Of a DNA stretch of 15,823 nt, positions 252-15,823 are shown piece by piece. Source of the DNA: Candidatus Krumholzibacteriia bacterium. Its GTDB lineage: Bacteria > Krumholzibacteriota > Krumholzibacteriia > WVZY01. The notes beneath the pieces are model-generated. The model was given only the letters and a program-made list of their open reading frames with translations, was not told where the DNA came from and searched no databases. Positions within the stretch are counted from its first letter, which is position 1; every line of letters starts with the position of its first letter. The stretch is taken from assembly GCA_036478295.1 (NCBI GenBank), contig JAZGDW010000141.1, forward strand, positions 1 to 15,823. The letters are read 5' to 3'. A program made the position numbers and the translations under genes.

Positions 252-629
252 ATGAACAAAAAGGAGCGAACCCGTTTCAAGAAACTTATCGAAGCCGAAA
301 GGGAAAGGGTCGCGGGTAAGCTCAGCGTTATCGGCGAAGGAATCTCGGACCGGGCAGCCAGTCAGTCTGCCGGCAATCAGAGTTATTCCAATCATATGGC
401 AGACGTAGGTAGCGACGCGATGGAGCAGGAACAGGCGTTCCAGCACGCCAGTGTCGGCTCCGATTATTTGCGAATGCTGGTGGATGCTCTCAAGCGCATC
501 GAGAAGGGTACGTACGGCGTATGCGAAGTCTGCAACAGCAAGATTCCGGTCAAACGTCTCGAGGCCTACCTGGCGGCGAGGCTCTGCATACAATGCAAGT
601 CCGCGCAGGAGAAGCTCCAAAGGAGCTAG
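252..629 (+). CDS. dksA: TraR/DksA family C4-type zinc finger protein
   Basis: Coiled coil with tip NHMADVGSD, ALKRIEKGTYGVCEVC...RLEA...ARLCIQC zinc finger; SD AGAGG upstream. Confidence 0.9.
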   Translation: MNKKERTRFKKLIEAERERVAGKLSVIGEGISDRAASQSAGNQSYSNHMADVGSDAMEQEQAFQHASVGSDYLRMLVDALKRIEKGTYGVCEVCNSKIPVKRLEAYLAARLCIQCKSAQEKLQRS

Positions 630-631
630 AG

Positions 632-1081
632 TTGGGTTTTCTGCTCCCTGCCCTGATTGTTCTCATCCTTGATCAAGCCACCAAGCAGTTCTTCTGGCAT
701 CTCGGCCGCAACTTCGATGTGATCGATGGATTCTTCCGTGTGACGCTTGTCCGCAATTCCGGCGCCGCGTTCGGCATGCTGCAGGACGGCCGGGTCTTCC
801 TGGTCGCGTCGAGCATTATCGCCTCACTGTTCATCTTGTTCCTTGCGCAGCGCCTGCCAGCCCAGAACCTCGCCCGGCGCGTATTCCTCGGTTTGATCCT
901 GGGCGGTGCACTGGGCAATCTCGTCGACCGTATCTACCCCGGGCAGGTCATTGATTTCATCGACATGGGCATCCCGGCCTATCGCTGGCCCGTCTATAAT
1001 ATAGCCGATTCCGCAGTGACGATAGGCGGACTGTTGCTCGTTCTCAGTGTCACGCGATCCCGTAACGGTGGAGAAGAATAA
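632..1081 (+). CDS. lspA: Lipoprotein signal peptidase II
   Basis: Motifs DQATK, NSGAAFG, GGALGNLVDR, VIDFI, YNIADS. Start re-assigned to TTG 632, after SD AGGAG at 621-625 (ORF track starts at 521). Confidence 0.95.
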   Translation: MGFLLPALIVLILDQATKQFFWHLGRNFDVIDGFFRVTLVRNSGAAFGMLQDGRVFLVASSIIASLFILFLAQRLPAQNLARRVFLGLILGGALGNLVDRIYPGQVIDFIDMGIPAYRWPVYNIADSAVTIGGLLLVLSVTRSRNGGEE

Positions 1082-2072
1082 TCAGGCAAACGTGCTGACC
1101 GTCGGTCCCGAACACGCAGGCCGGCGACTGGATGTGTTTTGCGCATCGCGCATTCCCCTCCTGTCGAGAAACCAGATCCAGAAACTCAACAAAGACGGTG
1201 CGATCGAAGTGGACGGTGTACGGCGCGCCGGCCGTTATCTCCTCAAGGAAGGTGAGATCGTCCGCGTCACGGTACCCATGCGGCGCGACGCGGAACCCCC
1301 GAAGCCCCAGGACATACCGCTCAGAGTTGCGTGGGAAGACGATGATATTATCGTCGTCAACAAAGACCCCGGAGTGGTGGTGCACCCCGCGTACGGCAAC
1401 GAAGAGGGAACCCTGGTGAACGCCATTCTCGGGCGGGGCAGTCAGCTGTCCGCCCTGGGTGGCGCAGACCGCCCAGGAATCGTGCACCGCCTCGACAAGG
1501 AAACATCGGGTCTCATCGTTGTCGCCAAGAGCGATGCCGCCTACCGGGGACTGAACGAGCAGATCCGGGAGGGCGGCTTCCGCAAAGTCTACCATGCCAT
1601 CGTGTGGGGTAATCTCGCCGCGCGCCGACAGACCATAGACGCGCCCATAAGCCGGCATCCCGTCCACCGCAAGAAAATGGCGGTCGCCAAGAGGGGGGGC
1701 AAGTCGGCAATCACGGAGGTGTTCGTGGTAGACAGCTTTGAGTATTTCGACTATATTCGGGTGGTTACCTTGACCGGCAGGACGCACCAGATTCGTGTAC
1801 ATCTGGCGCATGTGGCGCACCCGGTCCTGAGCGACGGCGTTTACGGGGGGCGGCGTAAGAAAGGCCTTCCTTCTAACATAAAGACTCGAAACTTCATTGG
1901 CTCGCTTCAGAAATCGATGCCGCGGCACGCCCTGCACGCGTCAACACTTTCATTTGTGCATCCGGGGTCGGGCGAACAGTTGAAATTCGTGACCACGCTA
2001 CCTGAAGACATGCGGCTGACGTTAGAGAGGTTGCATCGGGAAAACCTGGTTCAAGGAGGTGCGAGAAATTGA
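1068..2072 (+). CDS. rluD: RluA/RluD family 23S rRNA pseudouridine synthase with N-terminal S4 domain
   Basis: RLD S4 motif, VVNKDPGVVVHP, RPGIVHRLDKETSG (catalytic Asp), TGRTHQIRVH, RHALHA. Start uncertain (GTG 1047 or 1068). Confidence 0.93.
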   Translation: MEKNNQANVLTVGPEHAGRRLDVFCASRIPLLSRNQIQKLNKDGAIEVDGVRRAGRYLLKEGEIVRVTVPMRRDAEPPKPQDIPLRVAWEDDDIIVVNKDPGVVVHPAYGNEEGTLVNAILGRGSQLSALGGADRPGIVHRLDKETSGLIVVAKSDAAYRGLNEQIREGGFRKVYHAIVWGNLAARRQTIDAPISRHPVHRKKMAVAKRGGKSAITEVFVVDSFEYFDYIRVVTLTGRTHQIRVHLAHVAHPVLSDGVYGGRRKKGLPSNIKTRNFIGSLQKSMPRHALHASTLSFVHPGSGEQLKFVTTLPEDMRLTLERLHRENLVQGGARN

Positions 2073-2413
2073 AATTCAGTCGGCGTGATGTTGAAGGAGC
2101 CGTGGCGATTGATATCAAAGGCAAGCTGACCGGTGGCCCGGAGGCGGAGACGTTTCGTGAAATGTTCAAAGACCTGGTGGAGAAGGGCCAAAAGGACGTT
2201 ATCCTCAACCTCAAAGAGGTAGACTGGATTGCGAGTACCGGTATCGGCATCATGATCCGGGGGTACAAGACGATCGCCGAGGCCGGCGGCCGCTTCATTC
2301 TCGTCAACGTTGGAGAGAGAACCCAGCAGGTTTTCAACGTGATGCGGCTCTACGACATTTTTGAAATTCTGGATACGGAAGAAGAGGCTATCAAGAGCAT
2401 TGCCGGATCCTGA
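2069..2413 (+). CDS. STAS-domain anti-sigma factor antagonist (RsbV/SpoIIAA-like), copy 1
   Basis: 114 aa; ILNLKEVDWIASTGIG retains the phospho-acceptor Ser position; TTG start after SD AGGAGG. Confidence 0.92.
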   Translation: MKFSRRDVEGAVAIDIKGKLTGGPEAETFREMFKDLVEKGQKDVILNLKEVDWIASTGIGIMIRGYKTIAEAGGRFILVNVGERTQQVFNVMRLYDIFEILDTEEEAIKSIAGS

Positions 2414-2516
2414 CGCTGGGGTTCGGCCTCGCCCGCCTGGGTGTGGTTGGACGGTGGTGCGGCAGGAGCCCGTAGCTCGCCAGGCGCCGCGCTTGCTATT
2501 CTAAGGAGGAACAAGA

Positions 2517-2867
2517 TTGAAGGTTAACCAGAGAGAAGTCCATGGGGCGGCGGTTCTGGAACTGAACGGCAAGCTGACCGGTGGCCCGGAGGCGGAGACG
2601 TTTCGCGAGCTCTTCAAGACGCTGGTCGATCAGGGCAAACGCAATATCATCATCAACCTCAAGAAGGTGGACTGGATCAACAGTACCGGCCTCGGGATCC
2701 TGATTGCCGGACATTCAACGGTCCGCAAGGCGGGCGGCGAGCTCGTTCTGTGCAACGTTGGCGACAGGATCGACAGTATCCTCTATGTCACCAAGCTCAA
2801 CCTGTTGTTTCCCGCGTTCGAGGACGAAGAAGCTGCAGCCGACCACTTCAGGAAAGAAACAGAGTAG
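2517..2867 (+). CDS. STAS-domain anti-sigma factor antagonist (RsbV/SpoIIAA-like), copy 2
   Basis: 116 aa; IINLKKVDWINSTGLG; TTG start after SD AAGGAGG; clear paralog of 2069-2413. Confidence 0.92.
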   Translation: MKVNQREVHGAAVLELNGKLTGGPEAETFRELFKTLVDQGKRNIIINLKKVDWINSTGLGILIAGHSTVRKAGGELVLCNVGDRIDSILYVTKLNLLFPAFEDEEAAADHFRKETE

Positions 2868-2889
2868 TTTGCGGAGATTAGTTCGCACC

Positions 2890-3336
2890 ATGGCCGTTCG
2901 CCAAGAGAAGATGGAGTTCAGCATCCCCAGTGACTTCAAGTTTCTGGGCGCCGTGGACGCGGCCGTTCAGGATCTGGCCCGGGAGTTGTCCTGCGGGCAA
3001 AGATGGATCAACGATTTTAGCACCGCGCTGGTCGAGGCCTGTTCCAACGCCATCGAGCATGGTAATCAGTATGACAAGGGTAAGGCGGTGCGCGTAGTCA
3101 TTTGCTTGAATGGACACAGGCTCATCGCACGCGTGCAGGACGAGGGGAACGGTTTCAACTACGACGATTATCTCTCCGACGCGACTCCGCCTGATCCTCT
3201 CAGCGAGCGGGGCCGCGGTATACTTATAATGAGGGCCTTCACGGATGAGTTGACCTTCAGCCGGCGCTCCGGCGGCGGGGTTTGCGTCGAGCTCGTGAAG
3301 GACTGTGAAGACGGCTCGCCCTCGTCGCAAGCCTGA
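2890..3336 (+). CDS. RsbW/SpoIIAB-like anti-sigma factor Ser kinase (HATPase_c_2)
   Basis: N-box EACSNAIEHGN, G1 VQDEGNGF, G2 ERGRGILIM. Start likely ATG 2890 or 2911. Confidence 0.9.
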   Translation: MAVRQEKMEFSIPSDFKFLGAVDAAVQDLARELSCGQRWINDFSTALVEACSNAIEHGNQYDKGKAVRVVICLNGHRLIARVQDEGNGFNYDDYLSDATPPDPLSERGRGILIMRAFTDELTFSRRSGGGVCVELVKDCEDGSPSSQA

Positions 3337-3463
3337 CGATAACGGTAGCTTCCACCGTTCTTCCCGCACGCACGCCGCTTCCGCCAGCGCGGGAACCTTT
3401 GGGTTCGACCACGCGTATTTATTATAACAGGCTCCTGTCCGCCCCTGATCCCCCGGAGTATTC

Positions 3464-5728
3464 ATGGGTGTGCCGTTCACACTTCTGCTGTCCGTGTTCT
3501 ACCTGGCAAGCGGCATTTTCCTTTTCTTGCTGGGTCTGACCATCCTGAGAACGGGGAACAACAGTGCTCCCACCCGCGCCACCGCCTTGATTTTGTTCTT
3601 CGCTGGCGTGGGACCGATCCTTAGTGCGTCCAGCATTATTCTGCAGGGCAGCCTGAAACAGGACGCGGTCGTTTACCGGTCGATGGTGGATAACTTCGAG
3701 TACCTCTGGGAATTCTACTTTCCGGCGCTGTTGTGGTTTTCGTTGACCTTTCCCAGGCAGAAGAGGTTCTTCACCAATTTTGTGTTCGTCGGTGTGCTGG
3801 TCTTCGCGCCGTACGTGTTTCACCTCGCGATGATTATGGGCGGTGACGGCTTCTCGAGAACGATTATGAACATCGCGGACAACGTGCAGCTGTCGAGAGA
3901 GTTCTCGATAGCTGGGAGGACCGTGTCCCTGTCCCGCCTGGGCGATGTTATCTCTGCCATCTTCTCCACGCTGCTCAACCTGCACAAGCAGTTGTTCCTG
4001 CTCGTGAACATCCTCTACGCGTCCGCGGCGGCCGCAGTGCTCTTTCGCAGCATGAAGCTCCATATCAATCCGCGTATCACCGGCCAGCTGAGGACCGTGC
4101 TCATTGGACTGACGGTGAGTATCGGCGGTTATACGCTCGCCAAGGTGATGCCACTGCTTCCGGGACCGCTCACCTCGGAGACCATCAGCCTCGCCTTGAT
4201 CAACTTCGCCCTGGTGGCCGGTGGGGGATCGGTCGCGTGGGTCTTGATTCGCCAGCAGTTCCTCGGCATCCGCTATGTGACCCGCCGTGCCGTGTTGTAC
4301 GGGGGCGCCGCGCTGGTGTTCGCCGTGGTCTATCTCATTGTAGTCAAACCGGTGAGTGATTTTTTTGGACAGTACACTGTGGCGGGCAAGGAGGCCTTCG
4401 AGACCGGTTTCATTATTCTGACCATCATCGCGTTTCAGCCGGTGTTCTTCCGCATCGAGGAGGTTCTCGAGCGCGCGCTGCTGAAGGGCAGGGATGACCT
4501 GCAGACAAAATTCAGGGAGTTGGGTAGCGAGATCTCAAACGTCGTCACCGAGGAAGAGCTGGAACGCCGTTTGGGGGACGGCATTCGTCAGATTCTCGAC
4601 GCCACCGACGTCAAGATATACCTGAACGGCGATGAGCACAGGTTCGAGCAGCTGGCACCGATCCTCGAGGAGATCGGTGAGCCGATCCTCCGGCAGGAGC
4701 TTCTCGACCTCGGCGAAAAGGGACGGTTGCCCGGCCAGGCGGAGACGGAGAAGCCGCGTGACAAGGCCCAGGCGAAGAGAAAATCCAGGGAACGATTGGA
4801 GGCGGCCAGCAAGCTGGCGGGCGGCGACGAAGTGCTGGTGCCCATCCTGCGGGACCGCCGGTGCGCGGGTTTCGTGGCGCTGGGCGAGAAGACGTACGGG
4901 CTCAAGTACGAAGAGGAAGAGCTGGGATTCCTGTCCGTAATCGCGAACCAGGTCGGGGTGGCGTTGGACAATGTCCGTCTGCTGCGTGAAAACGTGGAGA
5001 AGAAAGTGATCGACAAAGAGCTGCAGATGGCCCGGCGCATCCAGTCGCAGCTGCTGCCCTCGGGGTCGCCGGAGATACCGGGCTACCAGCTGAGCGCAAC
5101 GACCATCCCAAGTCGATACGTGGCTGGAGATTACTATGATTTTCGGGTCCTCGACGACACCAGTCTGGTGCTGGTGGTGGCGGATGTTTCGGGCAAGGGT
5201 ATTCCCGCGTCACTGCTGATGGCGACTCTGCGGGCGGCGGTCAACTCGAACCAGGATGCCAGAAACCAGCCGGCGGCCATGTTGCGGCGGATAAACACTC
5301 TCCTCTACGAGAGCACGTCGCCGGAGGAGTTCGCGACCGTTTTTTATAGTGTGGTCGATTTGAGAAGCGGTGAGATAAGATACGCCAACGCCGGGCACGA
5401 ATTTCCTTATCTGCGCGCGGACGGACGGCTCGAACGGTTGGACGAAAGCGGGTTGGTGCTGGGCTGCGTTCTGGATTTTCCCTATGAAGAGAAATCGTGC
5501 AAGCTGCCTAACGGCGGATCGCTCATTTTGTTCACCGACGGTATGACGGACGCGGTCGCGAGCAGCGGCGAGAACTTCGGGGAGGATCGACTGCGACGGG
5601 CGATCGACTCCAATCACGACAAGGATTCCTCCGCTCTATGTGCGGCGCTCCTCGAGGAAGTGCGGGACTTCTCTCGCGGCGGCGACTACAACGACGACCT
5701 GACGCTGGTCGTGCTCAAACGCGAATGA
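3464..5728 (+). CDS. Membrane-bound GAF + PP2C/SpoIIE Ser phosphatase (RsbU-like)
   Basis: Multi-TM N-terminus; GAF-like segment (VLVPILRD...GFVALGEK...LSVIANQVGVALDN); ELQMARRIQ, AGDYYDF, VADVSGKG, YANAGH, FTDG, DDLTLVV. Confidence 0.93.
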   Translation: MGVPFTLLLSVFYLASGIFLFLLGLTILRTGNNSAPTRATALILFFAGVGPILSASSIILQGSLKQDAVVYRSMVDNFEYLWEFYFPALLWFSLTFPRQKRFFTNFVFVGVLVFAPYVFHLAMIMGGDGFSRTIMNIADNVQLSREFSIAGRTVSLSRLGDVISAIFSTLLNLHKQLFLLVNILYASAAAAVLFRSMKLHINPRITGQLRTVLIGLTVSIGGYTLAKVMPLLPGPLTSETISLALINFALVAGGGSVAWVLIRQQFLGIRYVTRRAVLYGGAALVFAVVYLIVVKPVSDFFGQYTVAGKEAFETGFIILTIIAFQPVFFRIEEVLERALLKGRDDLQTKFRELGSEISNVVTEEELERRLGDGIRQILDATDVKIYLNGDEHRFEQLAPILEEIGEPILRQELLDLGEKGRLPGQAETEKPRDKAQAKRKSRERLEAASKLAGGDEVLVPILRDRRCAGFVALGEKTYGLKYEEEELGFLSVIANQVGVALDNVRLLRENVEKKVIDKELQMARRIQSQLLPSGSPEIPGYQLSATTIPSRYVAGDYYDFRVLDDTSLVLVVADVSGKGIPASLLMATLRAAVNSNQDARNQPAAMLRRINTLLYESTSPEEFATVFYSVVDLRSGEIRYANAGHEFPYLRADGRLERLDESGLVLGCVLDFPYEEKSCKLPNGGSLILFTDGMTDAVASSGENFGEDRLRRAIDSNHDKDSSALCAALLEEVRDFSRGGDYNDDLTLVVLKRE

Positions 5729-5733
5729 CCTGG

Positions 5734-5783
5734 GGGGACTGCGCGGCGTCGACGTCGCCAAGACGTCGATACCCCGCAGCCCC
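5734..5783 (+). other. Long GC-rich intergenic stem-loop without U-tract
   Basis: GGGG-A-CTGCG...TCGACGTC-gccaa-GACGTCGA...CGCAG-CCCC, between the phosphatase stop and the ruvX SD. Confidence 0.6.
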
Positions 5784-5801
5784 ATGCGAAAGAAGGAGCG
5801 C

Positions 5802-6209
5802 ATGCGCATTCTAGGCATTGACCCCGGCGATCGCCGGATTGGGCTCTCCGTCAGCGACGAGACGGGTATCATCGCCCAGGGTCTCGACACGTTTGACAAG
5901 CGGAACGGGATCGATTTTCTTGTGTATATATCGGATTTGACGCGCACTTACGACGTGTCGGAAATCGTGATCGGTGACCCTGTTCTGCTCTCCGGCCGGA
6001 GGGGAGAATCGAGCGACAAAGCCAAGGCGCTGGCCGGGAAATTGCGGAGGAGGTTCGATATCCCGGTGACGCTGTGGGATGAGCGCCTGTCGAGCTCGGA
6101 GGCCAGGCGGGTGTTGCGAGGTTCCAAGAGCGACAAGGGTACAGTGGACAAGCTGGCGGCGGTGATCATCCTGCAAAGCTACCTGGATTATCGGAGGAAC
6201 GCTGAGTGA
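5802..6209 (+). CDS. ruvX: YqgF/RuvX family nuclease (pre-16S rRNA processing)
   Basis: MRILGIDPGDRRIGLSVSD, WDERLSS, VDKLAAVIILQSYLD; ATG 5802 after SD AAGGAG 5793-5798. Confidence 0.93.
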   Translation: MRILGIDPGDRRIGLSVSDETGIIAQGLDTFDKRNGIDFLVYISDLTRTYDVSEIVIGDPVLLSGRRGESSDKAKALAGKLRRRFDIPVTLWDERLSSSEARRVLRGSKSDKGTVDKLAAVIILQSYLDYRRNAE

Positions 6210-7213
6210 TCCGAAAACTCGTGTTCGGCGGTGCGCTGCTGCTCCTGCTGTCAGTCGGGTTCGGGGCCTTTGTTATAATGAGAGGTCTCTACCAGCGACC
6301 TGACGGGACCGGAGTGGAGCCCGTTCTTTTTACCGTCAAGAGCGGGGAATCGTTCTCAGGCGTCACACGGCGCCTGCAAGCGCAGGGGCTCATTGTCCGC
6401 AGGCGTCCACTCGTTGTTTATGCGTGGTTGCGGCGGCTCGATCGCCGGATTGCGGCCGGCACCTATCTGCTGGCCCCGGGGACGACTCCAAAAGATATCT
6501 TGTACAAGCTGGAGAACGGAGATGTCCACAAGGTGCCGGTTACCATTCCGGAAGGTTTTATGCACCGGCAAATCGCGGGCGTGCTGGCGGCCAGGACCGA
6601 CGTGGATTCCACCGCCTTTGCCAACCTGCTGACCGATTCGCTGATCCTTGCCGAGTTTGGCATTGACGGGCCCTCACTGGAGGGCTACCTCTTTCCGGAC
6701 ACCTACCTCATCCCGTGGGGGGCGGCGCTGCCGGAGATCGTAGGCGCCATGGTTCGAAGGCTCGGAGAGGTTTTTGATGGCAACCTGCGGCAACGCGCCG
6801 AAGAGCTGGGCATGACCCGCCGCGAGGTGCTGACGCTGGCCTCTATTGTAGAGGCGGAAACCCGGTTGCCGAAAGAGCTGCCACTCGTGGCGGCCGTATA
6901 TCATAACCGGCTCAAAAGGGGAATGAGGCTGGAAGCCGACCCCACAGTGGCCTACGCGATGGGCGGATACAAGGGCCGGTTGCTGTTCAAGGATCTGACA
7001 ATCGACTCGCCGTACAACACCTATAAACACGGCGGGCTGCCGCCGGGACCGATATGCAACCCTGGAGGAGCGGCAATCCAGGCGACGCTCAATCCAGACC
7101 CGGCGTGCAAGGCGATCTATTTTGTGGCTGAGGGCAACGGCAGACACATCTTCTCCTTGAACCTGCACGATCATCTTGCCGCGGTGCGCAAGGTGAGGCG
7201 TAGTCGTCGGTAG
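6206..7213 (+). CDS. mltG: Endolytic transglycosylase MltG (YceG)
   Basis: N-terminal TM; VTIPEG, LEGYLFPDTY, LASIVEAE, NRLKRGMRLEADPT, SPYNTY, GLPPGPICNPG. Confidence 0.96.
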   Translation: MIRKLVFGGALLLLLSVGFGAFVIMRGLYQRPDGTGVEPVLFTVKSGESFSGVTRRLQAQGLIVRRRPLVVYAWLRRLDRRIAAGTYLLAPGTTPKDILYKLENGDVHKVPVTIPEGFMHRQIAGVLAARTDVDSTAFANLLTDSLILAEFGIDGPSLEGYLFPDTYLIPWGAALPEIVGAMVRRLGEVFDGNLRQRAEELGMTRREVLTLASIVEAETRLPKELPLVAAVYHNRLKRGMRLEADPTVAYAMGGYKGRLLFKDLTIDSPYNTYKHGGLPPGPICNPGGAAIQATLNPDPACKAIYFVAEGNGRHIFSLNLHDHLAAVRKVRRSRR

Positions 7214-7232
7214 TGAAAGGTATTCGTTTAGA

Positions 7233-8120
7233 ATGACACGTGAACCCGCCACACCAGATACCGGGCCGATAGTTCCGGCGGAGCTCGAAGTGCATTACGC
7301 AAAGTTGCGTGACGTTGTGGAAAGCTATGGTTCCATGGTGGTGGCCTATTCCGGAGGCGTGGATTCCGGTCTGCTGGCTTGGGTGGCGCATGACGTGCTG
7401 GGCGGGCGGCGGGCGCTGCCCGTGATTGCCGTCTCGCCTTCGCTGCCGCAGCGTGAGAAACATGCGGCGCTTGACTTCCTTCTGCGGCACGGGATTCCCT
7501 GGGAAGAGGTGGCTACGGGCGAGATGGCGGACGAGAACTATGTAAAAAACAACCCGGACCGCTGTTATTTTTGCAAGAGCGAGCTGTTCGTGCGACTGAA
7601 CCGACTGGCGCAAAGTCGAGGCTATGCGTGCATCGCGTACGGTGCGAATGTGGATGACCTTGGCGACTACCGGCCCGGTGCGCTTGCGGCCAGGGAACAG
7701 CGCGTCGTTTCACCACTCGTGGAGGCGGGGTTGACCAAGCGGCGGGTAAGGGCTTTGGCCAGGGTTCTGGGGCTCTCGCTGTGGGATAAACCCGCCGCGC
7801 CGTGTCTGGCATCACGGATCCCGTACTTCGACCAGGTTACCGGCCACAAACTGGAGCAGATCGAGAGATCGGAAAACATCCTCAAAGATCTGGGCTTCGA
7901 AGTCTGTCGCGTACGCCACCACGGCGAGACGGCCCGCATCGAAGTGCCTCGCGACGAGCATGAACGGCTGCTGCGAGACGACAACTGGGCGCGGGTGGTG
8001 ACCGAGCTCGGACGGATCGGGTTTCGGCGGGTCACACTGCACGGGGACGGTTTCCGGAGCGGGCGGTTGAACCAGTCGCTGGCGCCCGGGCGCGCGGCCG
8101 GCGGGCGAGGAAGCGATTGA
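7233..8120 (+). CDS. larE: LarE-family ATP-dependent sulfur transferase (PP-loop)
   Basis: AYSGGVDS PP-loop, NPDRCYFCK, DDLGDYRPG, WDKPAAPCLASRIPY, RVRHHG, GFRSG. Confidence 0.93.
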   Translation: MTREPATPDTGPIVPAELEVHYAKLRDVVESYGSMVVAYSGGVDSGLLAWVAHDVLGGRRALPVIAVSPSLPQREKHAALDFLLRHGIPWEEVATGEMADENYVKNNPDRCYFCKSELFVRLNRLAQSRGYACIAYGANVDDLGDYRPGALAAREQRVVSPLVEAGLTKRRVRALARVLGLSLWDKPAAPCLASRIPYFDQVTGHKLEQIERSENILKDLGFEVCRVRHHGETARIEVPRDEHERLLRDDNWARVVTELGRIGFRRVTLHGDGFRSGRLNQSLAPGRAAGGRGSD

Positions 8121-8178: not shown

Positions 8179-8349
8179 GTGCAAAGCAAAAGCAAGACCG
8201 GATCCTTTAAGTTCAAGTGGAAGATCTTCGCCGCCGGAATCGTGTCCATTGTAGCGGGGTACGTGTTTCTGGCGGGCAACGACATTACCATCGCGCCGCT
8301 GCTGTTGGTCCTGGGCTACTGCGTGCTGGTTCCCCTGTCCTTCTTGTAA
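8179..8349 (+). CDS. Small two-TM membrane protein, DUF3098-like (56 aa; absent from ORF track)
   Basis: GTG start after GAGGGG 8165-8170; MQSKSKTGSFKFKWKIFAAGIVSIVAGYVFLAGNDITIAPLLLVLGYCVLVPLSFL*: basic N-terminus, two hydrophobic helices, APxLLVLGY. Confidence 0.78.
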   Translation: MQSKSKTGSFKFKWKIFAAGIVSIVAGYVFLAGNDITIAPLLLVLGYCVLVPLSFL

Positions 8350-8368: not shown

Positions 8369-8444
8369 GGGCGAATAGCTCAGTTGGGAGAGCGCCTGCC
8401 TTACACGCAGGAGGTCACAGGTTCAAGCCCTGTTTCGCCCACCA
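8369..8444 (+). tRNA. tRNA-Val (anticodon TAC)
   Basis: 76 nt; acceptor GGGCGAA/TTCGCCC with encoded ACCA; D arm GCTC..GAGC; anticodon arm CCTGC-CTTACAC-GCAGG; T loop GGTTCAAG. Confidence 0.98.
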
Positions 8445-8743: not shown

Positions 8744-9451
8744 ATGTTTAAAGGTAAACTGGCTGTTCTCTGTTTGCTTGCGGCATCACTGCTCATGATA
8801 CAAGGGATAGCCTTCGCGGGGATCATCAACCCGTGCGTTTCCAACTGCACACTGAGTGCCGCGGTAAACGGCGGCGCCCCGGGCGTCAACGGCAATTTCG
8901 CATTGTTCGTTTGTCCGCAGGGCGACACCGACACGTTCGACGATCAGATTGGGGGCCTCGGCTCCGGGGTCGGCTTCATCGTTTCTATCACGATGCTGGA
9001 AACAGACTCGACCCCGATTCCGAATATTCCGGGTCCCGATTTCTGGCTCGTTGACTGTGATCCGATCAACGACGCTATCCTCTGTGGAGGTTCCGCGTCG
9101 TCCGGTGCCGATTCTCTGACGAACGCCGCAGGCACGACAACCATGGGTGGCCTTGGTGGCTTCCAGGGTGGTGGCTGTACTGACGGCATCTCCGTCGTTG
9201 TGCAGGGTAACGCACTTCTGGATCCGGTCGTCAGCTGCGCAGCTGCGAAATGCCTCGGAGTCAGTATTCGCAGCCCCGACATGAACGGTGACAACGTGGT
9301 TGCCCTGGCAGATCTCGCGATTTTTGCCACGTCTTTCCCGCCGCAGCCGTACGATACGTGGGCCGATTTTGACCTTTCCGGCATCGTCAACCTGTCGGAT
9401 CTGGCCCGGTTCGCGTTTCACTTCGGTCCTCCGGGACACGCGTGTAACTAA
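8744..9451 (+). CDS. Secreted Cys-rich protein with C-terminal dockerin-like double EF-hand repeat
   Basis: SD GGAGG; Sec signal ending AFA|G; repeats DMNGDNVVALADLAIF and DFDLSGIVNLSDLARF (about 9278-9424); 9 Cys in the mature chain; no TWG tail. Confidence 0.8.
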   Translation: MFKGKLAVLCLLAASLLMIQGIAFAGIINPCVSNCTLSAAVNGGAPGVNGNFALFVCPQGDTDTFDDQIGGLGSGVGFIVSITMLETDSTPIPNIPGPDFWLVDCDPINDAILCGGSASSGADSLTNAAGTTTMGGLGGFQGGGCTDGISVVVQGNALLDPVVSCAAAKCLGVSIRSPDMNGDNVVALADLAIFATSFPPQPYDTWADFDLSGIVNLSDLARFAFHFGPPGHACN

Positions 9452-9539
9452 CGAAGCTGCGGAAAAGTTGGACAGGCAATAGCTCCTGAAAATTGGTTTG
9501 CGACAACAGGGCGTAACAGCAAGTAAGAGGAGTTGCCAG

Positions 9540-9626
9540 ATGAGAATTGCTAGAACATTGATCTTCGCGCTTGTCGCGCCGACCCTGATCGGCGCGTCTG
9601 TGGCGAGTGCGCAAACTCCCTACTAG
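9540..9626 (+). pseudogene. Truncated paralog of the type-A secreted gene (signal peptide + QTPY)
   Basis: MRIARTLIFALVAPTLIGASVASAQTPY* aligns with MTNVKVLVFALGVLAIVGASFAGAQTPY of 9833; both genes are preceded by AGGAGTTGC. Confidence 0.7.
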
Positions 9627-9640
9627 TGTCTGAAATCTTG

Positions 9641-9686
9641 AGCTGGATGAGCCCCAACGGGTTCATCCGAAGTGGTTCATCCAGCT
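9641..9686. repeat. Inverted repeat with a duplicated 3' arm
   Basis: AGCTGGATGAGCC 9641-9653 is complementary to GGTTCATCCAGCT 9674-9686; GGTTCATCC also occurs at 9660-9668. Confidence 0.75.
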
Positions 9687-9832
9687 TCCCAGAATCAGCA
9701 CTCCAGGGCGATTCAATGAATCAAAGGTTCTTCGCAATTTCTGACCAACAACTGTTTCAATGGGCGTAACCTCGACTTGAGCGAGATTACAACAATCAGG
9801 ACACGCAGCAAACAAGCAAAGGAGTTGCACCA

Positions 9833-10414
9833 ATGACGAATGTAAAAGTGTTGGTCTTCGCGCTGGGGGTGCTCGCAATAGTCGGAGCATCTTTCGCCGG
9901 TGCGCAGACGCCCTACGTAGCTGTCTTTTCGGACATATCACCCAGTGGGGACGGGCTGAACGAGGCCTTGATTCCGCCGGGTGTGCTGGGCCAGGTGGAT
10001 TCGCTCTTCCTCGTTGCCTACAATTTGAACTGTCTGGTAACAGGTATTGATGTTCGGGTCAATTACCCGGCGGCCATCATCTGGATCGCGGATATTGACA
10101 CACAGCCGGTGACCATTGGCACGACGCCGACGGGCATGTCCATGGGATGGGCCATTCCACAGAACGGGTTCGAGGGCGTAAACATCGCGACTGTCATCTT
10201 CCAGTGGGATATCACCTCCTGTGGAGGGAACAGGAGGGACCTTGAGATAGGAGTTGTTGGCCATCCGTTGTTCGCGACCCCTCTCGAGCCGGCGTACGCC
10301 TGCTTTCAGCAGGTACCCCTGTCCGCTGCGGTGGGTCTGACCGCGCTCATTTGCGCGACGGTGCCGGTTGAAGAGAGTACGTGGGGCAAAGTGAAAGCGC
10401 TGTATACGCGATAG
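9833..10414 (+). CDS. Secreted cohesin-like protein, type A, with C-terminal TWG tail
   Basis: SD AAGGAG; signal AGA|Q; beta-rich body (GIDVRVNYP...IATVIF); tail VPVEESTWGKVKALYTR. The ORF is secure; the fold call is tentative. Confidence 0.8.
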   Translation: MTNVKVLVFALGVLAIVGASFAGAQTPYVAVFSDISPSGDGLNEALIPPGVLGQVDSLFLVAYNLNCLVTGIDVRVNYPAAIIWIADIDTQPVTIGTTPTGMSMGWAIPQNGFEGVNIATVIFQWDITSCGGNRRDLEIGVVGHPLFATPLEPAYACFQQVPLSAAVGLTALICATVPVEESTWGKVKALYTR

Positions 10415-10533
10415 GTTGTATTGAGTTGCTCCATAGTTTCTGGAGCCCGGTACTACGGACTTGGAAGTACCAGTTATTTGGCGCGCGTTGCGTCGGCCAG
10501 GTCTGTTGGAGCGGCGGAGAGCCGGGATTGAAG

Positions 10534-10563
10534 TTGACATGAGCGGCTCTGTTATGGTAACAT
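10534..10563 (+). promoter_or_regulatory. sigma70-like promoter of the type-B gene
   Basis: TTGACA 10534-10539, 18-bp spacer, TG-g-TAACAT (-10 at 10558-10563). Confidence 0.65.
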
Positions 10564-10589
10564 CTACGGGCTCCAGAAAAGTCCAGGTC

Positions 10590-10767
10590 CTTAGTCGGCA
10601 CTCGAAAGGGAGGTAGCTGTCGGTTTCTCAGCGAGAGAGTTTTTTTGACCGCGCGGACACACCAAGCGGTTAAGCTCTTGTCCGATCTCCAACGTGCTAC
10701 CGGCTGAGCGAATGGAAAATGGTAAATGGCAAGCAGGCCTTTCACCCCGTTCACTCAAAAAGGAGTG
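10590..10767 (+). promoter_or_regulatory. Candidate structured cis-regulatory 5' leader (riboswitch-like)
   Basis: P1 10590-10597/10701-10708, GAAA hairpin 10601-10610, anti-SD CACTC 10752-10756, alternative helix 10705-10715/10747-10757. Confidence 0.45.
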
Positions 10768-10771
10768 TTTC

Positions 10772-11347
10772 ATGAAAAAGGTGATACTGTTAACTACGGT
10801 TATGCTTTTCGGCGCGAGCCTCGCGTTCGGCCAGGTGGGATTTCTCGGTACCTACGCCGATCCGGGCGGTCTCGAGTGTAACGTCGACGATGCAGTCGCG
10901 GGATTGCTGAACGTCTTTATAGTCAGCACGCACTCGATCGCCGCGGCTGTCGCTTTTAAGGCGGAGACGCCACTTTGTATGAGCACGACGGGTGCGTCGT
11001 TTCTCGCCGACACGAAGCCGTTCCCGGTGACGGTCGGTAACTCGCAGACCGGCGTTTCTGTGGCATACGGCGCCTGTTTAGGCCCCGATGCGACTAACGT
11101 TCTGATCATCGCCTACTTCGCCAGCGGGACGACCCCGTTGTGCTGTTTCTTCCCGATCACGGGCGATCCGGCCCAGCCCGGGGGCGAGATTATCGTTACC
11201 GATTGTGCTTTCGATGACAACATTGGAGTCGGTGTTATACACACGGTCAACGGCACACCCGAGAACTGTGCTTGCACCCCCCCGAGCCCTCCGGTGCCGG
11301 TTGAGGAGAGCACGTGGGGCAAGGTGAAGTCGCTGTACGTCGAGTAG
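10772..11347 (+). CDS. Secreted Cys-rich protein, type B, with C-terminal TWG tail
   Basis: ATG 10772 after SD AAGGAG (ORF track starts at 10694); signal AFG|Q; 8 Cys; Pro-rich linker then VPVEESTWGKVKSLYVE. Confidence 0.82.
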   Translation: MKKVILLTTVMLFGASLAFGQVGFLGTYADPGGLECNVDDAVAGLLNVFIVSTHSIAAAVAFKAETPLCMSTTGASFLADTKPFPVTVGNSQTGVSVAYGACLGPDATNVLIIAYFASGTTPLCCFFPITGDPAQPGGEIIVTDCAFDDNIGVGVIHTVNGTPENCACTPPSPPVPVEESTWGKVKSLYVE

Positions 11348-11374
11348 AGACTGTTCGGTTATACTTGTTTCGTT

Positions 11375-11415
11375 GAGATGACGCCCGCTGCCACGTAGCG
11401 GGCGTTATCTTTTTT
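11375..11415 (+). terminator. Rho-independent terminator
   Basis: AGATGACGCCCGCT / AGCGGGCGTTATCT stem followed by a T-run. Confidence 0.85.
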
Positions 11416-11716
11416 CTCGAGTCTTGCCGTTTGGCAGCCGATTTTGCACTCTGCGAGAGTGCCGGCCGGGCCAGGCGAACGGACTGCCTCTCCCGCAGCT
11501 CCCCGGTCTCCCGAGTGTGGAAGCCCCTCAGGAAAAAGCTGCCCAAACGGGGGCGCATACGGTCGCACAACGGCCGGTTAGTTCCGGCACGAGATTTGGC
11601 CCTCTCCGGGACGATTCCTGGTGCCGTGCCCGCCCGTTGGGTCCATCTCTTGCATACGATACCCGCAGGACGTCCTGATCCAAAAACCTGGTTAATTTCT
11701 AGAGCGAGGTGATCGT

Positions 11717-12271
11717 ATGCGCATTTTTCGATCGATAGCGGTGGCGGCTCTGCTGCTCGTGGTCTGCACGGGCCTGTCCTTGGCGCAGACACCCACTGTC
11801 CGAATCTATTTTGACACGGGGCTCACGGCACAGAGCGAGAATTGCCCGCCCGGCGGTGGGCTTGATTCGATGTTCGTCGTGGCCCAGGCGTTCGGCTCCC
11901 TCATCATGGGCCTGGAGCTGGCCATCAACTTTCCCGGGACCATGACATGGCTCGCGGACGTAGGCACACCCCCGGTGACCTTCGGCGACTCGCCGACGGG
12001 CATTTCCATGGGCTGGCCGGTGCCGGAGAATGCGTTCGGGAGGTTCAGGGCCTACATGGTCCTGTTCACGTGGAACTGCAATGGTTGCGGGGTCACCGAC
12101 GATCCCGCCGTTGTCGTACCGAACCCAAGCACCGGATTTGTCGGCGCTGCGTCATTCCCGACCTACCAGCTCATCAGCGCTGTTGGCATGACATCACTGG
12201 TGTGCGCCACAGTCCCCGTCGAAGAGACAACCTGGGGCCGCGTCAAGGCCCTCTATTCTGCGACGCGATAA
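11717..12271 (+). CDS. Secreted cohesin-like protein, type A', with C-terminal TWG tail
   Basis: SD GAGGTG; signal SLA|Q; paralog of 9833 (WLAD...PVTFG...PTGISMGW); tail VPVEETTWGRVKALYSATR. Confidence 0.82.
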   Translation: MRIFRSIAVAALLLVVCTGLSLAQTPTVRIYFDTGLTAQSENCPPGGGLDSMFVVAQAFGSLIMGLELAINFPGTMTWLADVGTPPVTFGDSPTGISMGWPVPENAFGRFRAYMVLFTWNCNGCGVTDDPAVVVPNPSTGFVGAASFPTYQLISAVGMTSLVCATVPVEETTWGRVKALYSATR

Positions 12272-12304
12272 GCGACGTTTTCCGCATACGTCTCCGACGA
12301 TAAC

Positions 12305-12344
12305 CCACCCACGAGAGGCCGCCTCCCGTGGGTGGCTGCTTTTT
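12305..12344 (+). terminator. Probable Rho-independent terminator
   Basis: CCACCCACG-A-GAGG-ccg-CCTC-C-CGTGGGTGG followed by CTGCTTTTT. Confidence 0.7.
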
Positions 12345-12407
12345 AGCCGGTTGCCGGGCATAAACGTCCGATCGCACGGGCGGGCCTTTTCCAAACCACA
12401 AAAAAGC

Positions 12408-12437
12408 TTGACATCCACGACGGCTCCGTTGAACACT
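12408..12437 (+). promoter_or_regulatory. Possible sigma70-like promoter of the type-B' gene
   Basis: A-tract then TTGACA 12408-12413; only a weak -10 (AACACT 12432-12437, 18-bp spacer). Confidence 0.4.
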
Positions 12438-12597
12438 TACTCCGCGGTCGTCCTGTGCCGCTTGGTTCACGTTGGTTTGCGTGGCCGCCGCTCGAGACGG
12501 CTTGCCGTTTGGGCGATGGCAAGGGGTGCACGGGGCTGCCTGTGCCGCCGGATGTAAGGGCTCGTTGCGTATTTCCTCGTCTTCGAAGGAGACGTCT

Positions 12598-13152
12598 ATG
12601 AAAAAGGCTTTGTTATTGACGATCGTGTTCACGCTGTGGGCGACCATGGCTTTTGCCCAGGCGGGGCTTATTTCGATATTCGCGGACGTCGGGGGCAACG
12701 ACTGCAACCTGGTGGACGTAGCAGGCGTAAACAACTGGAACTTCGTGCACATGGCCACGGTGGGCGCGACCGCGATCTGGTTCAAGGCGGAGTTTCCCGC
12801 TTGTTATGCGGGCAGTTTTATAGCGGACCAGGTCCCGTTCGCTGTCTCGAATGGCAACTCGCAAATTGGCCTTGCCGTTGGGTATGGCCAATGCTTGGTG
12901 TCGCCGATCCTTGTTGCGACGGTGGTCTCGATTGGTTTGGGTAACACACTCCCCTGCTGCGCGTACCCGATTGTCGGCGACCCTTTCTCTTTGTCGGGGA
13001 CGATCGAAGTGACGGATTGCGCCTTCAAGGACATTCCCAATGTTCCCAGCCAGAACGGGATGATAAACAGCGACGCGACGTGCCTGTGCGCCGTTGCCGT
13101 CCACGAGACGACCTGGGGCCAGATCAAAGCAATCTATCGGTCGGCCGATTAG
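12598..13152 (+). CDS. Secreted Cys-rich protein, type B', with C-terminal TWG tail
   Basis: ATG 12598 after SD AAGGAG (ORF track starts at 12472); signal AFA|Q; all 8 Cys align with 10772; tail VAVHETTWGQIKAIYRSAD. Confidence 0.82.
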   Translation: MKKALLLTIVFTLWATMAFAQAGLISIFADVGGNDCNLVDVAGVNNWNFVHMATVGATAIWFKAEFPACYAGSFIADQVPFAVSNGNSQIGLAVGYGQCLVSPILVATVVSIGLGNTLPCCAYPIVGDPFSLSGTIEVTDCAFKDIPNVPSQNGMINSDATCLCAVAVHETTWGQIKAIYRSAD

Positions 13153-13179
13153 TCACAGCGCGTAGTTAATCCAAGTGTT

Positions 13180-13218
13180 CGGCCCTTGCCCCTGTAGGGG
13201 TAAGGGCCGTTCTTTATT
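13180..13218 (+). terminator. Rho-independent terminator
   Basis: CGGCCCTTGCCCC-tgta-GGGGTAAGGGCCG followed by TTCTTTATT. Confidence 0.85.
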
Positions 13219-13261
13219 GACCATGCGGTACGTGGGTACCGGTAACCCATGAGCCGGGCGA

Positions 13262-13291
13262 TTGACAACGGGCACCGGTCCGCGGTATACT
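13262..13291 (+). promoter_or_regulatory. sigma70-like promoter of the C25 peptidase gene
   Basis: TTGACA 13262-13267, 18-bp spacer, TATACT 13286-13291. A second candidate TTGACG-N17-TAAGTT lies at 13313-13341. Confidence 0.7.
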
Positions 13292-13429
13292 GATACTCGA
13301 TCTCGCTTCGACTTGACGGCGACGATTGGATCTAATAAGTTTTAGCTAGTTTGCCAGCCTGCTTTTAGCCCCCTGCGACATCCAAACACGGTAACCCCTG
13401 TGCTTGAAGCCTTGGGAGGTTGTATCTAC

Positions 13430-15823
13430 ATGCGTTCCGGCCGTTTTTTCGTAGTGCCCCCCCCACACGGGTTGTGGTTCGGCGTCGTGCTGGCCTGCGC
13501 CGCACTCGTCGTGGCAGGACCCGCCGCGGCGCCCGCCGTCGGTGCGGAGGTCAAGCTCGTGTCCTCAGACGCCTCCCGGCTGGTTTTCGAAGTGAACCTG
13601 GAAGGGTTCCGTTTCGAGGCGTCACCGTTTCTCGCGGGGACCGAAAGACTCGAGATACCGGATTTCGGGACCCTGACCGGAGAAGGCGAGCCCCGGCTGC
13701 CCGGGCGCTACTATATGGTCGCCCTGCCGCCTGAGGGCCGCTACTCGCTTCGCTCCACGATCGTTCGCTCGCAACCCCTCGGCCGGCACCGGCTGGAGCC
13801 GGCGCCTTCGGCGGTTGCCGTGCGGGACGGAGCGGATTTCGTGACCACCCGGGAAATCTACCGCATCGACGACTCGGTATACGGGCAAAAGAAGTACACC
13901 ATCGGTGTGACGGACGCCGGCGTCGGCCGCGTGCGACACCAGCGCATCGTGTCGCTCCGGGTGGATCCGGTGGCGTACGACCCGGCGACGGGAGAGACCG
14001 TTTTGGCCACGATCATCCGCATCGAGGTGTCCTTCGACCCGGCCGGCCGGAACAGGCTCGGCCCGGGCCGTGAGGACGCCCTGCGACCTGTCCCCGAGTC
14101 CGATGTGTGGGACCGTATCCTGTCAGGAATGCTGGTGAATCCGGGGCAGGCCCGGGAATGGCGGGCCGCGCCGAGGCGATCTGCAGTCTATCGGGAAACA
14201 GCCCAGGCCGCCCTGGCGCTGGCCGGTCCCGTGGTAAAACTCCAGGTGAAGGAGAGCCGGATGCACCGCGTGAGCGCCGCCTCCGTCATTGCCGAAGGGT
14301 TTCCGGCGGGGACGGCAACCGCAGATCTACACTTGTTCAAACGCTCGTACGACGACGCCATCCTGGCGGAGCGCGTCGTCGATGTGGCCTACAAGGTGGT
14401 CGAGGACCCGGCTGGCACGGTGGGCACTTTCGACGGCAACGACTACGTGATTTTCTACGGCCAGCAGCTCCGCGAAGACACGCTGCAAGACGATCCGATT
14501 CAGAAGTTCACCGACGATAACATATACTGGCTGGGTGCGTCTGCCGGCCCGCAGATGAGTCCCAAGACCGTCGCGCCCGGGTTCGTGACCGGCGACACCA
14601 CCTCGGCGTCGTTCCCCGTGACCCGCCGTTTCGAACGGGACCTGTGGTTCCGCGAGAAGACGCCGCCGCTGGAGCGGGATTTTTTCTACTACCATAATCC
14701 ACGGCTGCAGTCTTTTTCGGCGCCGTTTGTGCTCGACGCGGTCGACGGCGGCGACCAGTTTCGCGTGAAGGCCCGGTTTTTGGGCGCAGACCGCAACGTC
14801 ATCTCGCGCGTCATAAGGGTGAGAATCCTCAACAGCAAAGGCACGACCGTCTTGAAGCAGGTATCCGTGCCGAGGAACACACTGATCAACTACGACTCCG
14901 GGCCGATGTTTGCCGGTTCTCTGGTCGAAGGCCTCAACACCTTTCGAATCACGCCAGACGCTCAGAACCAGGCGTCGTTCCTCGACGTGCTCCTCAACTG
15001 GTTCGACCTCGAGTACCAGTCACCGTACCGCGCCAAGGGCAACGTGCTGGATTTTCACTCCGCCTCGTTGGCCGGTGACACCAGTCTCACCGTCACCGGT
15101 CTCAGCCGCCCGGACGTGATGCTCTTCGACGTCACCGATCCGCTCGCGCCCCGCGATTGCCAGCTCGGAGGCGGGCACCTTACCCCGGTAGGAGGCGGTT
15201 GGGTACTGTCCTTTCGAGAAACGCTGGTGTCGCAGAGGCGTTACATCGTGACACCGCTGGACAAGATAAAAGAGATCTCAGGGGGCGACGTCATCTCGGA
15301 CGTGGACGGTGGTCTGATCGACAATCCGGCCAAGGGCGGCGTGGACGTTCTTGTGGTGTCGCACAGGAACTTTCTCGGCGAGATGCAGCGCTGGGTGGAT
15401 TATCGCAAGTCGCAGGGCTACCGGGTGCTGATGGCCGACGTCGATGAGATCTACGATGAGTTCAACGGCGGCGTCAACCACCCGCGGGCAATCCGCAGGT
15501 TCATCCGCCATTTCTTCGAGAACGGAAACGCCAGCTTCGTGCTGCTGGTGGGGGACAGCAACGAGGACAACAAGCGCGTGCACGGCACCGACTCGGGTAT
15601 CAATTTTGTTCCGACCGAGTCGTTCACCGAGTTCGTCGGCGCCGGATTCAACGAGGACGAGGTGGTGACGACCGACAAATGGTACGTCATGCTCGACCAT
15701 GATTTCATCAAGGATCCGCTGCGAGAGTTTCCGCTGCCCAACCCGGTGAATTTCATTCCAAGCCTGATCATCGGCAGGCTGCCCGCGGGCAACACCACGG
15801 AGCTGCGCCGGATGATCGACAAG
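13430..15823 (+). CDS. C25-family (gingipain-like) cysteine peptidase with propeptide, PorU/sortase-like; 3' partial (798 codons in window)
   Basis: ATG 13430 after GGAGGT; signal peptide; propeptide motifs GEPRLP and VDPVAYDPATG; PorU-like FDGNDYVIFYG and FTDDNIYWL; C25 domain DVLVVSH, IYDEFNGG..HPRAIRRF, VLLVGD, TDKWY, IGRLPA. Absent from the ORF track because there is no stop in the window. Confidence 0.88.
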   Translation, partial: MRSGRFFVVPPPHGLWFGVVLACAALVVAGPAAAPAVGAEVKLVSSDASRLVFEVNLEGFRFEASPFLAGTERLEIPDFGTLTGEGEPRLPGRYYMVALPPEGRYSLRSTIVRSQPLGRHRLEPAPSAVAVRDGADFVTTREIYRIDDSVYGQKKYTIGVTDAGVGRVRHQRIVSLRVDPVAYDPATGETVLATIIRIEVSFDPAGRNRLGPGREDALRPVPESDVWDRILSGMLVNPGQAREWRAAPRRSAVYRETAQAALALAGPVVKLQVKESRMHRVSAASVIAEGFPAGTATADLHLFKRSYDDAILAERVVDVAYKVVEDPAGTVGTFDGNDYVIFYGQQLREDTLQDDPIQKFTDDNIYWLGASAGPQMSPKTVAPGFVTGDTTSASFPVTRRFERDLWFREKTPPLERDFFYYHNPRLQSFSAPFVLDAVDGGDQFRVKARFLGADRNVISRVIRVRILNSKGTTVLKQVSVPRNTLINYDSGPMFAGSLVEGLNTFRITPDAQNQASFLDVLLNWFDLEYQSPYRAKGNVLDFHSASLAGDTSLTVTGLSRPDVMLFDVTDPLAPRDCQLGGGHLTPVGGGWVLSFRETLVSQRRYIVTPLDKIKEISGGDVISDVDGGLIDNPAKGGVDVLVVSHRNFLGEMQRWVDYRKSQGYRVLMADVDEIYDEFNGGVNHPRAIRRFIRHFFENGNASFVLLVGDSNEDNKRVHGTDSGINFVPTESFTEFVGAGFNEDEVVTTDKWYVMLDHDFIKDPLREFPLPNPVNFIPSLIIGRLPAGNTTELRRMIDK

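Follow-up and report, generated by a model that had tools for sequence, protein, structure and literature searches.

Type IX secretion systems (T9SS) recognize C-terminal signals of ~100 residues (type A) or 150-235 residues (type B), according to the excerpted text of PMC12618676, and the cleavage specificity of their peptidase PorU is given as X/(GSA)(VLI), e.g. EPT/ATEQ in HBP35, in an excerpt of PMC4560394. In the LPXTG, PEP-CTERM, GlyGly-CTERM and MYXO-CTERM systems, dozens of unrelated secreted proteins share a common short C-terminal tag, as they do in the genome studied here, and cohesins and dockerins are described both as non-cellulosomal pairs and in single-cohesin anchoring scaffoldins. 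Cohesin and dockerin genes are also reported in Latescibacteria genomes. Here, we describe a gene block from a Candidatus Krumholzibacteriia bacterium (GCA_036478295.1) that resembles the T9SS, short-tag and cohesin-dockerin systems in part; it occupies positions 8744-15823 of contig JAZGDW010000141.1, which we call the window (the whole 15,823-nt stretch analyzed). The block encodes an immunoglobulin (Ig)-like, dockerin-bearing protein (D), four cohesin-like proteins (T1-T4) that end in a tail of ~15 residues (the TWG tail) and a C25 peptidase. With a module found phylum-wide and a tag found in four phyla, known kinds of parts stand in an undescribed arrangement, and the gene block suggests a surface-anchoring route with a much shorter address label than the known ones. 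We found no description of the TWG tail or of the D-T-C25 block in the literature at the level of abstracts, mostly open-access and without supplements. The Fibrobacteres-Chlorobi-Bacteroidetes (FCB) phyla listed with a possible T9SS in the excerpted text of PMC11285876 do not include Krumholzibacteriota, Poribacteria or Fermentibacterota, and a term search within PMC11205867 returned none of the tail-bearing phyla.

The order on the + strand is tRNA-Val (8369-8444), D (8744-9451, 235 residues), an array-gene remnant (9540-9626), T1 (9833-10414, 193 residues), T2 (10772-11347, 191 residues), T3 (11717-12271, 184 residues), T4 (12598-13152, 184 residues) and the N-terminal part of the C25 gene (13430-15823, with its start at 13430 or 13400), which is open at the window end. 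As contig C48, the window belongs to a draft genome of 3.5 Mb, and its closest locus, with 74% identity over the C25 gene, is labelled Candidatus Krumholzibacteriia. D and T1-T4 have signal-peptide-like N-termini, with a sequence like a ribosome-binding site upstream of each. The consecutive secreted-protein genes and the C25 gene behind them, as read in an initial annotation, are present; that annotation was right about four intact tail genes and overlooked a further array gene, the internally deleted remnant. The remnant runs from a signal peptide through AQTPY to a stop and has 84% DNA identity to both the start and the end of the first tail gene in relative L001, with ~470 bp between the matching ends gone.

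T1-T4 each consist of a signal peptide, a cohesin-fold (T1) or cohesin-like (T2-T4) domain and the TWG tail, and their C-termini are VPVEESTWGKVKALYTR, VPVEESTWGKVKSLYVE, VPVEETTWGRVKALYSATR and VAVHETTWGQIKAIYRSAD, respectively. The consensus of 204 array tails is [VIT][APG][TVAN][EQ][ED]x[ST][WF]Gx[VIL]Kx[LM][YF]; the Lys is found in 100% of these tails, which were partly selected on Lys, and is the only invariant column of alignment A4. Within the 39,011 stop-to-stop frames of the own genome, a motif search found 34 terminal copies, a position-specific scoring matrix found 38 terminal copies and 1 internal copy, and a broad hidden Markov model (HMM) of the tail found 34 matches at ≥20 bits, all ≤14 residues from a stop, and 36 terminal matches and 1 internal match at ≥10 bits. 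Since the broad-HMM matches nearly all lie beside a stop, the recurrence of the tail is not chance. By a crude rule, 28 of the 36 tail open reading frames (ORFs) have a signal-peptide-like start, and several of the 32 tail proteins scanned have NHL, CHRD, LTD, beta-helix, BACON, temptin or cytochrome c domains. The 36 terminal ORFs and their unrelated domains bear out the proposal that the tail is a portable C-terminal tag; its proposed tie to cohesins holds for T1-T4, which form a cohesin family, and not for the 19 of 36 tail ORFs that lack an array-type body.

Unlike tripartite sorting signals, the TWG motif lies 9-13 residues from the C-terminal end (measured from its Ser/Thr in the 204 array tails) and is followed by no transmembrane helix, hydrophobic segment or basic cluster, and the candidate enzyme is a secreted C25 peptidase instead of a membrane protease. 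Like them, the block has a candidate protease adjoining the tagged array. No NCBIfam tail model matches the TWG tail, and a PDB sequence search with the tail profile gave nothing significant. We rejected an amphipathic membrane helix, as the hydrophobic moment of the 204 nine-residue cores (0.282) equals that of shuffles (0.282 ± 0.008) and the model shows no structure in the tail. We also rejected an NTF2-like lipoprotein as an in-cis tail receptor, since just one of the four paralogues in the own genome carries the internal motif. That paralogue, a lipoprotein-like protein (G000:C45:28609-30159, + strand) whose C-terminal domain presumably has the NTF2-like fold, carries the tail-like motif in an internal loop; the three others are without it.

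The range of the tail was sampled in five phyla. It was matched in 201/201 Krumholzibacteriota genomes at a permissive threshold (E≤1), the best E-values being ≤0.013. A broader tail profile at E≤0.05 matched 61/61 Poribacteria and 41/41 Fermentibacterota, members of both of which were included in building it, as well as 26/81 genomes of the Ignavibacteria-containing phylum (the phylum of the Kapaibacterium locus) and 0/81 Acidobacteriota. The Ignavibacteria-containing phylum nearly always has one secreted tail protein of 130-140 residues; its motif is terminal in all 120 homologues listed, of which the named ones are mostly Ignavibacteria, and Rosettibacter firmus, which we take to be cultured, is among the carriers of this single-copy protein. 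At loci L148-L152 and L229-L236, this single-copy secreted protein of 130-140 residues has a near-invariant tail and is unnamed in the databases searched, and at L148-L152 its gene lies upstream of a maf-like gene.

Several lines of evidence point to a link between the tail and T9SS. In the own genome, none of the 36 tail ORFs overlaps any of the 92 ORFs with a T9SS C-terminal domain (CTD); the former have a median length of 233 residues, the latter one of 654. The same passengers carry either tail or CTD, with CHRD and beta-helix passengers ending at about the same point, and in Poribacteria the tail directly precedes a T9SS CTD in 5 proteins, all of one family. The start of the tail often resembles a PorU cleavage linker: a triplet of [GSA][VLIFT] and an acidic residue stands at a single fixed offset before TWG in 12/18 Fermentibacterota, 21/35 Poribacteria and 72/199 Krumholzibacteriota array tails, counted with Phe and Thr allowed beyond the published PorU pattern and, for Krumholzibacteriota, with Gln allowed too. 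At any other offset, a cleavage-like triplet occurs ≤4 times. The Ignavibacteria-type tail protein has Ser-Val at the triplet position, then Lys-Arg. Locus L044 was left out, as a duplicate of L001, from these triplet-offset counts and from the counts of Pro at P1', neighbour genes and catalytic residues given below. Hence, the tail shares with T9SS signals a cleavage-like start and interchangeability with the CTD on the same passengers; unlike T9SS cargo, the tag is ~15 residues and not a folded beta-sandwich, and neither D nor T1-T4 has a folded CTD (~70-235 residues).

The window C25 peptidase matches Propeptide_C25 and Peptidase_C25 in Pfam, and its gene continues on contig C292 with the catalytic His, the catalytic Cys and a type A-like CTD. 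The full-length L001 orthologue (1380 residues) has Propeptide_C25, Peptidase_C25 and a C-terminal FlgD_ig/CTD-like domain. In its propeptide, His/Cys dyad and own CTD, the window-type peptidase is like PorU of the T9SS built on type A CTDs (TIGR04183), PorV and SprA, and PorU (6za2, E 1.9e-17) was the sole match in a PDB sequence search. Unlike PorU, it falls well short of the cut-off of 420 on the PorU model NF033707: the partial window protein scores 115.9 and seven full-length orthologues score 193.5 (L001), 212.4, 146.4, 110.8, 207.3, 172.7 and 92.6 (93-212 bits), whereas canonical PorU copies in four genomes of the phylum score 428-555. It is also not beside porV, since murQ follows the window-type gene in L001, L002 and C292 and porV follows the canonical copies, and the residue after the catalytic His is Ala, Met or Ser rather than Gly in most window-type sequences. 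Aligned to canonical PorU-family columns, the catalytic His and Cys are intact in 73/73 orthologues, the C292 piece included. In a quick tree of C25 domains (72 of 76 rows passed a domain-length filter), the 18 window-type rows, which come from seven families, form a single clade (Shimodaira-Hasegawa-like approximate likelihood ratio test, SH-aLRT, 100), sister to the canonical group with weak support (84). A second own-genome C25 gene scores 428 on NF033707 from a partial frame and, judged by its orthologues and a CTD piece on contig C288, is the porV-adjacent canonical PorU. By these sequence comparisons, the window C25 is a paralogue of PorU, not PorU itself; what had been called PorU-like is indeed a C25 peptidase with an intact dyad, and the canonical PorU-PorV pair lies elsewhere. 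An orthologue is present in 145/151 genomes; in G079 and G126, short C25 frames beside the array run into assembly gaps and were not counted as real truncations.

SprA, PorV and PorU are all present in the own genome, which has six PorV-family matches over the cut-off and 88 FlgD_ig/CTD matches, and SprA is found in 60/61 relatives. Hence, the co-occurrence with T9SS machinery anticipated in the initial annotation was found. GldM/PorM models gave no match in 8 distinct genomes, and no positive-control match either; the PorZ model gave a partial match under the cut-off. The PorV-family genes lie on G000:C288, C81, C218, C101, C203 and C190, several directly behind CTD-bearing genes, and are candidate dedicated shuttles. 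In Fermentibacterota (G348 and L013), a genome of 2.4 Mb has 17 C25 matches, PorU-like genes stand in tandem ahead of porV, and tail proteins form tandem arrays.

The gene order is conserved. Of 40 loci chosen on C25 alone, from families f3, f4, f6 and f7 according to how much upstream DNA was available, 36 have D and one or more tail genes directly upstream on the same strand, in agreement with the adjacency expected from the first reading. Among 40 D-anchored loci, 29 reach C25, 7 are cut off by a contig edge and the remaining 4 are paralogues of D with the array elsewhere in the genome. At 17 loci of f5, f8 and f9, D-T-C25 is kept, and none of the seven neighbours tested accompanies it; 15 of the 17 have only ~3 kb of upstream DNA, which is enough to show mltG in f2. 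This suggests that the block moves as a unit.

The T1 model has a predicted local distance difference test score (pLDDT) of 87.8, with <50 in the tail, and aligns by VIA with 2vo8 at Z 12.8 (root-mean-square deviation, rmsd, 2.4; 120 aligned residues). Rows 1-18 of the fold search are all cohesin entries, the next row has Z 8.9, and Foldseek and Atlas concur. The cohesin fold is shared with the non-cellulosomal pairs of Clostridium perfringens (2vo8/2ozn) and Archaeoglobus (2xdh), at Z 12.0-12.8. T3 (subtype A, like T1) has 39% identity to T1 over 152 residues, T2 and T4 (subtype B) have 44% identity to each other, and the two subtypes align with an hhalign probability of 99.8, signal peptide and tail included. 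T2 and T4 were tied to the array family by a tail-free array HMM as well, and the cohesin call for T2 and T4 is by profile homology only. T1-T4 are, by these comparisons, a single family, and the cohesin fold claimed earlier for the array proteins is supported by the T1 model and, for the others, by homology. T1-T4 have no NCBIfam match and no Pfam match at E≤0.1, PF00963 included, which is found in 16% of members of a neighbouring Atlas cluster, and a PDB sequence search with the subtype-B profile gave nothing significant. Two further own genes of this kind are a cohesin-like gene with a TGA ahead of the tail region, either broken or read through (G000:C182:24631-25296, - strand), and a gene for a subtype-A cohesin-like domain on a protein with a terminal T9SS CTD instead of the tail (G000:C156:23503-24798, + strand).

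D consists of a signal peptide, a Cys-rich Ig-like domain (residues ~26-177) and a C-terminal dockerin-like module (~175-234), and the model (pLDDT 94.5) has both domains. The module contains two EF-hand-like loops of the type Dx[ND]xDxxVNLxD, with helices at 188-195 and 217-224; Asp is at position 12 of both loops in 100% of 90 D homologues, and Cys is the last residue in 88 of them. Structural matches to dockerin chains are modest (Z 4.5-5.1), including 2ozn_B (Z 5.1, rmsd 2.2, 55 aligned) and 2y3n_D (Z 4.6), and X-dockerin-containing chains rank first in Foldseek, none at E≤0.001. As in X-dockerin dyads, an Ig-like domain precedes the dockerin module. D has no Pfam match at E≤0.1 and one chance-level NCBIfam match, it lacks the TWG tail, and Pfam and NCBIfam scans found no T9SS CTD in it; PF00404 matches 7/120 family members at E≤0.01, and an own-genome paralogue exceeds the Pfam dockerin cut-off. 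Hence, the two Ca-binding loop-helix repeats of a dockerin are present in sequence and model, and, with the fold matches and the paralogue, they uphold the dockerin-like module first noted. The D family is found in 192/201 genomes of the phylum.

We predicted the complex of T1 with D and obtained a score of 0.58 vs 0.00 for the best control, with contacts agreeing ≥97% between runs and a partner pLDDT ≥88. The mark for this prediction was reached by 116/157 solved pairs and 2/215 mismatched pairs; scores ≤0.60 include only 18 solved pairs plus both mismatches, so 0.58 is weak, and the score may reflect memory of solved cohesin-dockerin pairs. Hence, the prediction lends weak support to the D-T1 binding that had been suggested. 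The broader suggestion of scaffolds for dockerin-bearing partners went too far, as the own genome has 21 cohesin-like ORFs vs 3 dockerin-like ORFs by a D-derived HMM, or 2 by Pfam. Unlike non-cellulosomal cohesin-dockerin pairs and single-cohesin anchoring scaffoldins, the window proteins are Cys-rich and without a Pfam cohesin or dockerin match, there are many cohesins per dockerin protein, the host is diderm, and the TWG tail takes the place of LPXTG or SLH. In one Poribacterial genome (G264), 28 dockerin-like matches lie on long proteins, and at L003 a C25 gene has two tail genes 2 kb further downstream.

From the predicted folds, the portable tag, the synteny, the intact-dyad paralogue and the SprA, PorV and PorU of the genome, we tentatively favor a mechanism in which the paralogue cuts and transpeptidates a short T9SS-linked tag and so anchors cohesin-fold subunits that hold D. 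Instead of a ~100-residue CTD, the TWG tail would offer T9SS-type machinery a sorting tag that is short, soluble and C-terminal, made up of a PorU-type cleavage site (small residue, hydrophobic residue, acidic residue) and then a [ST][WF]Gx[VIL]K recognition motif. Tagged proteins would cross the inner membrane by Sec, a PorV-family shuttle would collect them through SprA, and the adjacent PorU paralogue would cut them and transpeptidate them onto a surface acceptor. The D-T-C25 block would be the core module of the phylum, with the T proteins as anchored subunits on which D, with no export tag of its own, would be held by Ca-dependent dockerin binding. The outcome would be a structural coat, not an enzyme scaffold.

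A number of results weigh against this mechanism. The T9SS signals described in the excerpted text of PMC12618676 are folded domains of ~100-235 residues, and all Poribacterial SprA matches are under the cut-off. Pro is at the putative P1' in 60/199 array tails and in 24/27 of the window's family, unlike known PorU sites. The C25 gene stands without an array in 4/40 loci (three f4 loci and one f3 second copy), and the array-less f4 genomes still have 19-42 tail matches. Since ruvX-mltG is also conserved, upstream in 35/40 C25-anchored loci, the synteny is partly that of a conserved chromosomal block, and related genomes in the synteny counts are not independent. Genome G275 has a tail protein and, as its only C25, a canonical PorU, and no sampled C25 from the other three tail-bearing phyla falls in the window-type clade of the 72-row tree. 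Hence, the window-type paralogue is not needed for the tag.

These points feed other explanations, of which the least improbable, though we think it unlikely, is that the tail stays uncleaved and serves for docking or retention by binding an envelope receptor, shuttle or carrier, with the C25 peptidase acting elsewhere or merely co-inherited. The Pro at P1' and the ruvX-mltG flank fit such a peptide, as do the internal copy in the lipoprotein loop, the conservation of Trp/Phe, Gly and Lys far above that of the cleavage-like half of the tail, and the Poribacterial motif before the CTD, which could be the remainder after CTD removal. Against it stand the fixed offset at which three phyla have the cleavage-like triplet, the D-T-C25 block kept apart from the tested neighbours in f5, f8 and f9, and the dyad intact in all 73 orthologues. 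If instead canonical PorU cleaves the tail and the paralogue has another job, e.g. processing D or CTD cargo, then G275 and the three phyla outside the paralogue clade are as expected; however, it is the paralogue, not canonical PorU, that adjoins the array across the phylum, and the own tails, with their Pro, differ from the own CTD linkers ([TV][GAS][IVF] in 44/85) as if served by two enzymes. We consider this reading improbable.

The paralogue might also join T subunits into a sortase-assembled polymer, in which the tail Lys or some other amine would be the acceptor and D would cap or cross-link the chain. Class C pilus sortase is encoded beside its pilin genes, and the order here, subunits plus a dedicated transpeptidase, is similar; the conserved tail Lys and the pilin domains ranking after cohesins in the T1 fold search (Z 8.5-8.9) also point this way. 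Yet cohesins are by far the better match (Z 12.8), propellers and cytochromes, which are unlikely shaft subunits, end in the tail too, and the Lys would be lost if the cut lies upstream of it. We see little chance of such a polymer. A cellulosome-like scaffold, in which anchored cohesins recruit many dockerin-bearing enzymes, is very improbable. It has in its favor the two folds and a few large dockerin proteins in some relatives; against it, two of the own dockerin-like ORFs are D-type proteins without a catalytic domain, and each of four other genomes has 0-4 Pfam dockerins. Because dockerins are scarce (2-3) relative to the 21 cohesin-like ORFs, a ratio that is the reverse of a cellulosome, the block is not an enzyme scaffold.

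If the favored mechanism of a cleaved T9SS-type tag is true, a peptide that replaces a folded CTD would change the view of recognition by PorV and PorU, explain by which route tens of proteins per genome are exported in four phyla, and provide a display tag of minimal size. The block also gives the TWG tag the enzyme candidate that it had lacked and, as we propose, shows cohesin-dockerin pairing in a structural rather than enzymatic role in a diderm; in Ignavibacteria, R. firmus included, the tag occurs in a single-copy version and can therefore be tested. A bolder extension, possible but doubtful, is that T9SS-type machines outside Bacteroidota read a third signal class, a ~15-residue peptide in at least four phyla, and that Krumholzibacteriota have evolved a dedicated PorU paralogue for this signal. 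Throughout the phylum, cohesin-fold subunits would then be built into a cell coat or a covalent polymer and cross-linked by one Ig-dockerin protein, which would leave the cell carried by its cohesin partner.

Between the array and the C25 gene, a terminator-like hairpin (13180-13209, + strand) is followed by a promoter-like site (13262-13291, + strand, 11 of 12 consensus), so the C25 gene may be transcribed separately; both are consensus matches only, with counts near shuffle level (4 vs 2.0 ± 1.5 and 10 vs 5.8 ± 2.7). In one marine-sediment metatranscriptome run, 0.06 of the words were present, and contigs of mostly 85-95% likeness fell on the tRNA, D and T1 region; these can neither rank genes nor show expression by this organism, and the uncovered parts prove nothing. 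A hydrophobic ORF of 56 codons (8179-8349, + strand) lies with tRNA-Val directly upstream of D. Window 252-8120 presumably holds a housekeeping run of DksA/TraR-like, lspA-like, RluA-like, RsbW- and RsbU-like and ruvX-like genes with two STAS anti-sigma antagonists, and it also contains mltG (YceG, a Pfam match) and a LarE-like gene. Downstream lie murQ and anmK-like genes, which places the D-T-C25 block among peptidoglycan-related genes.

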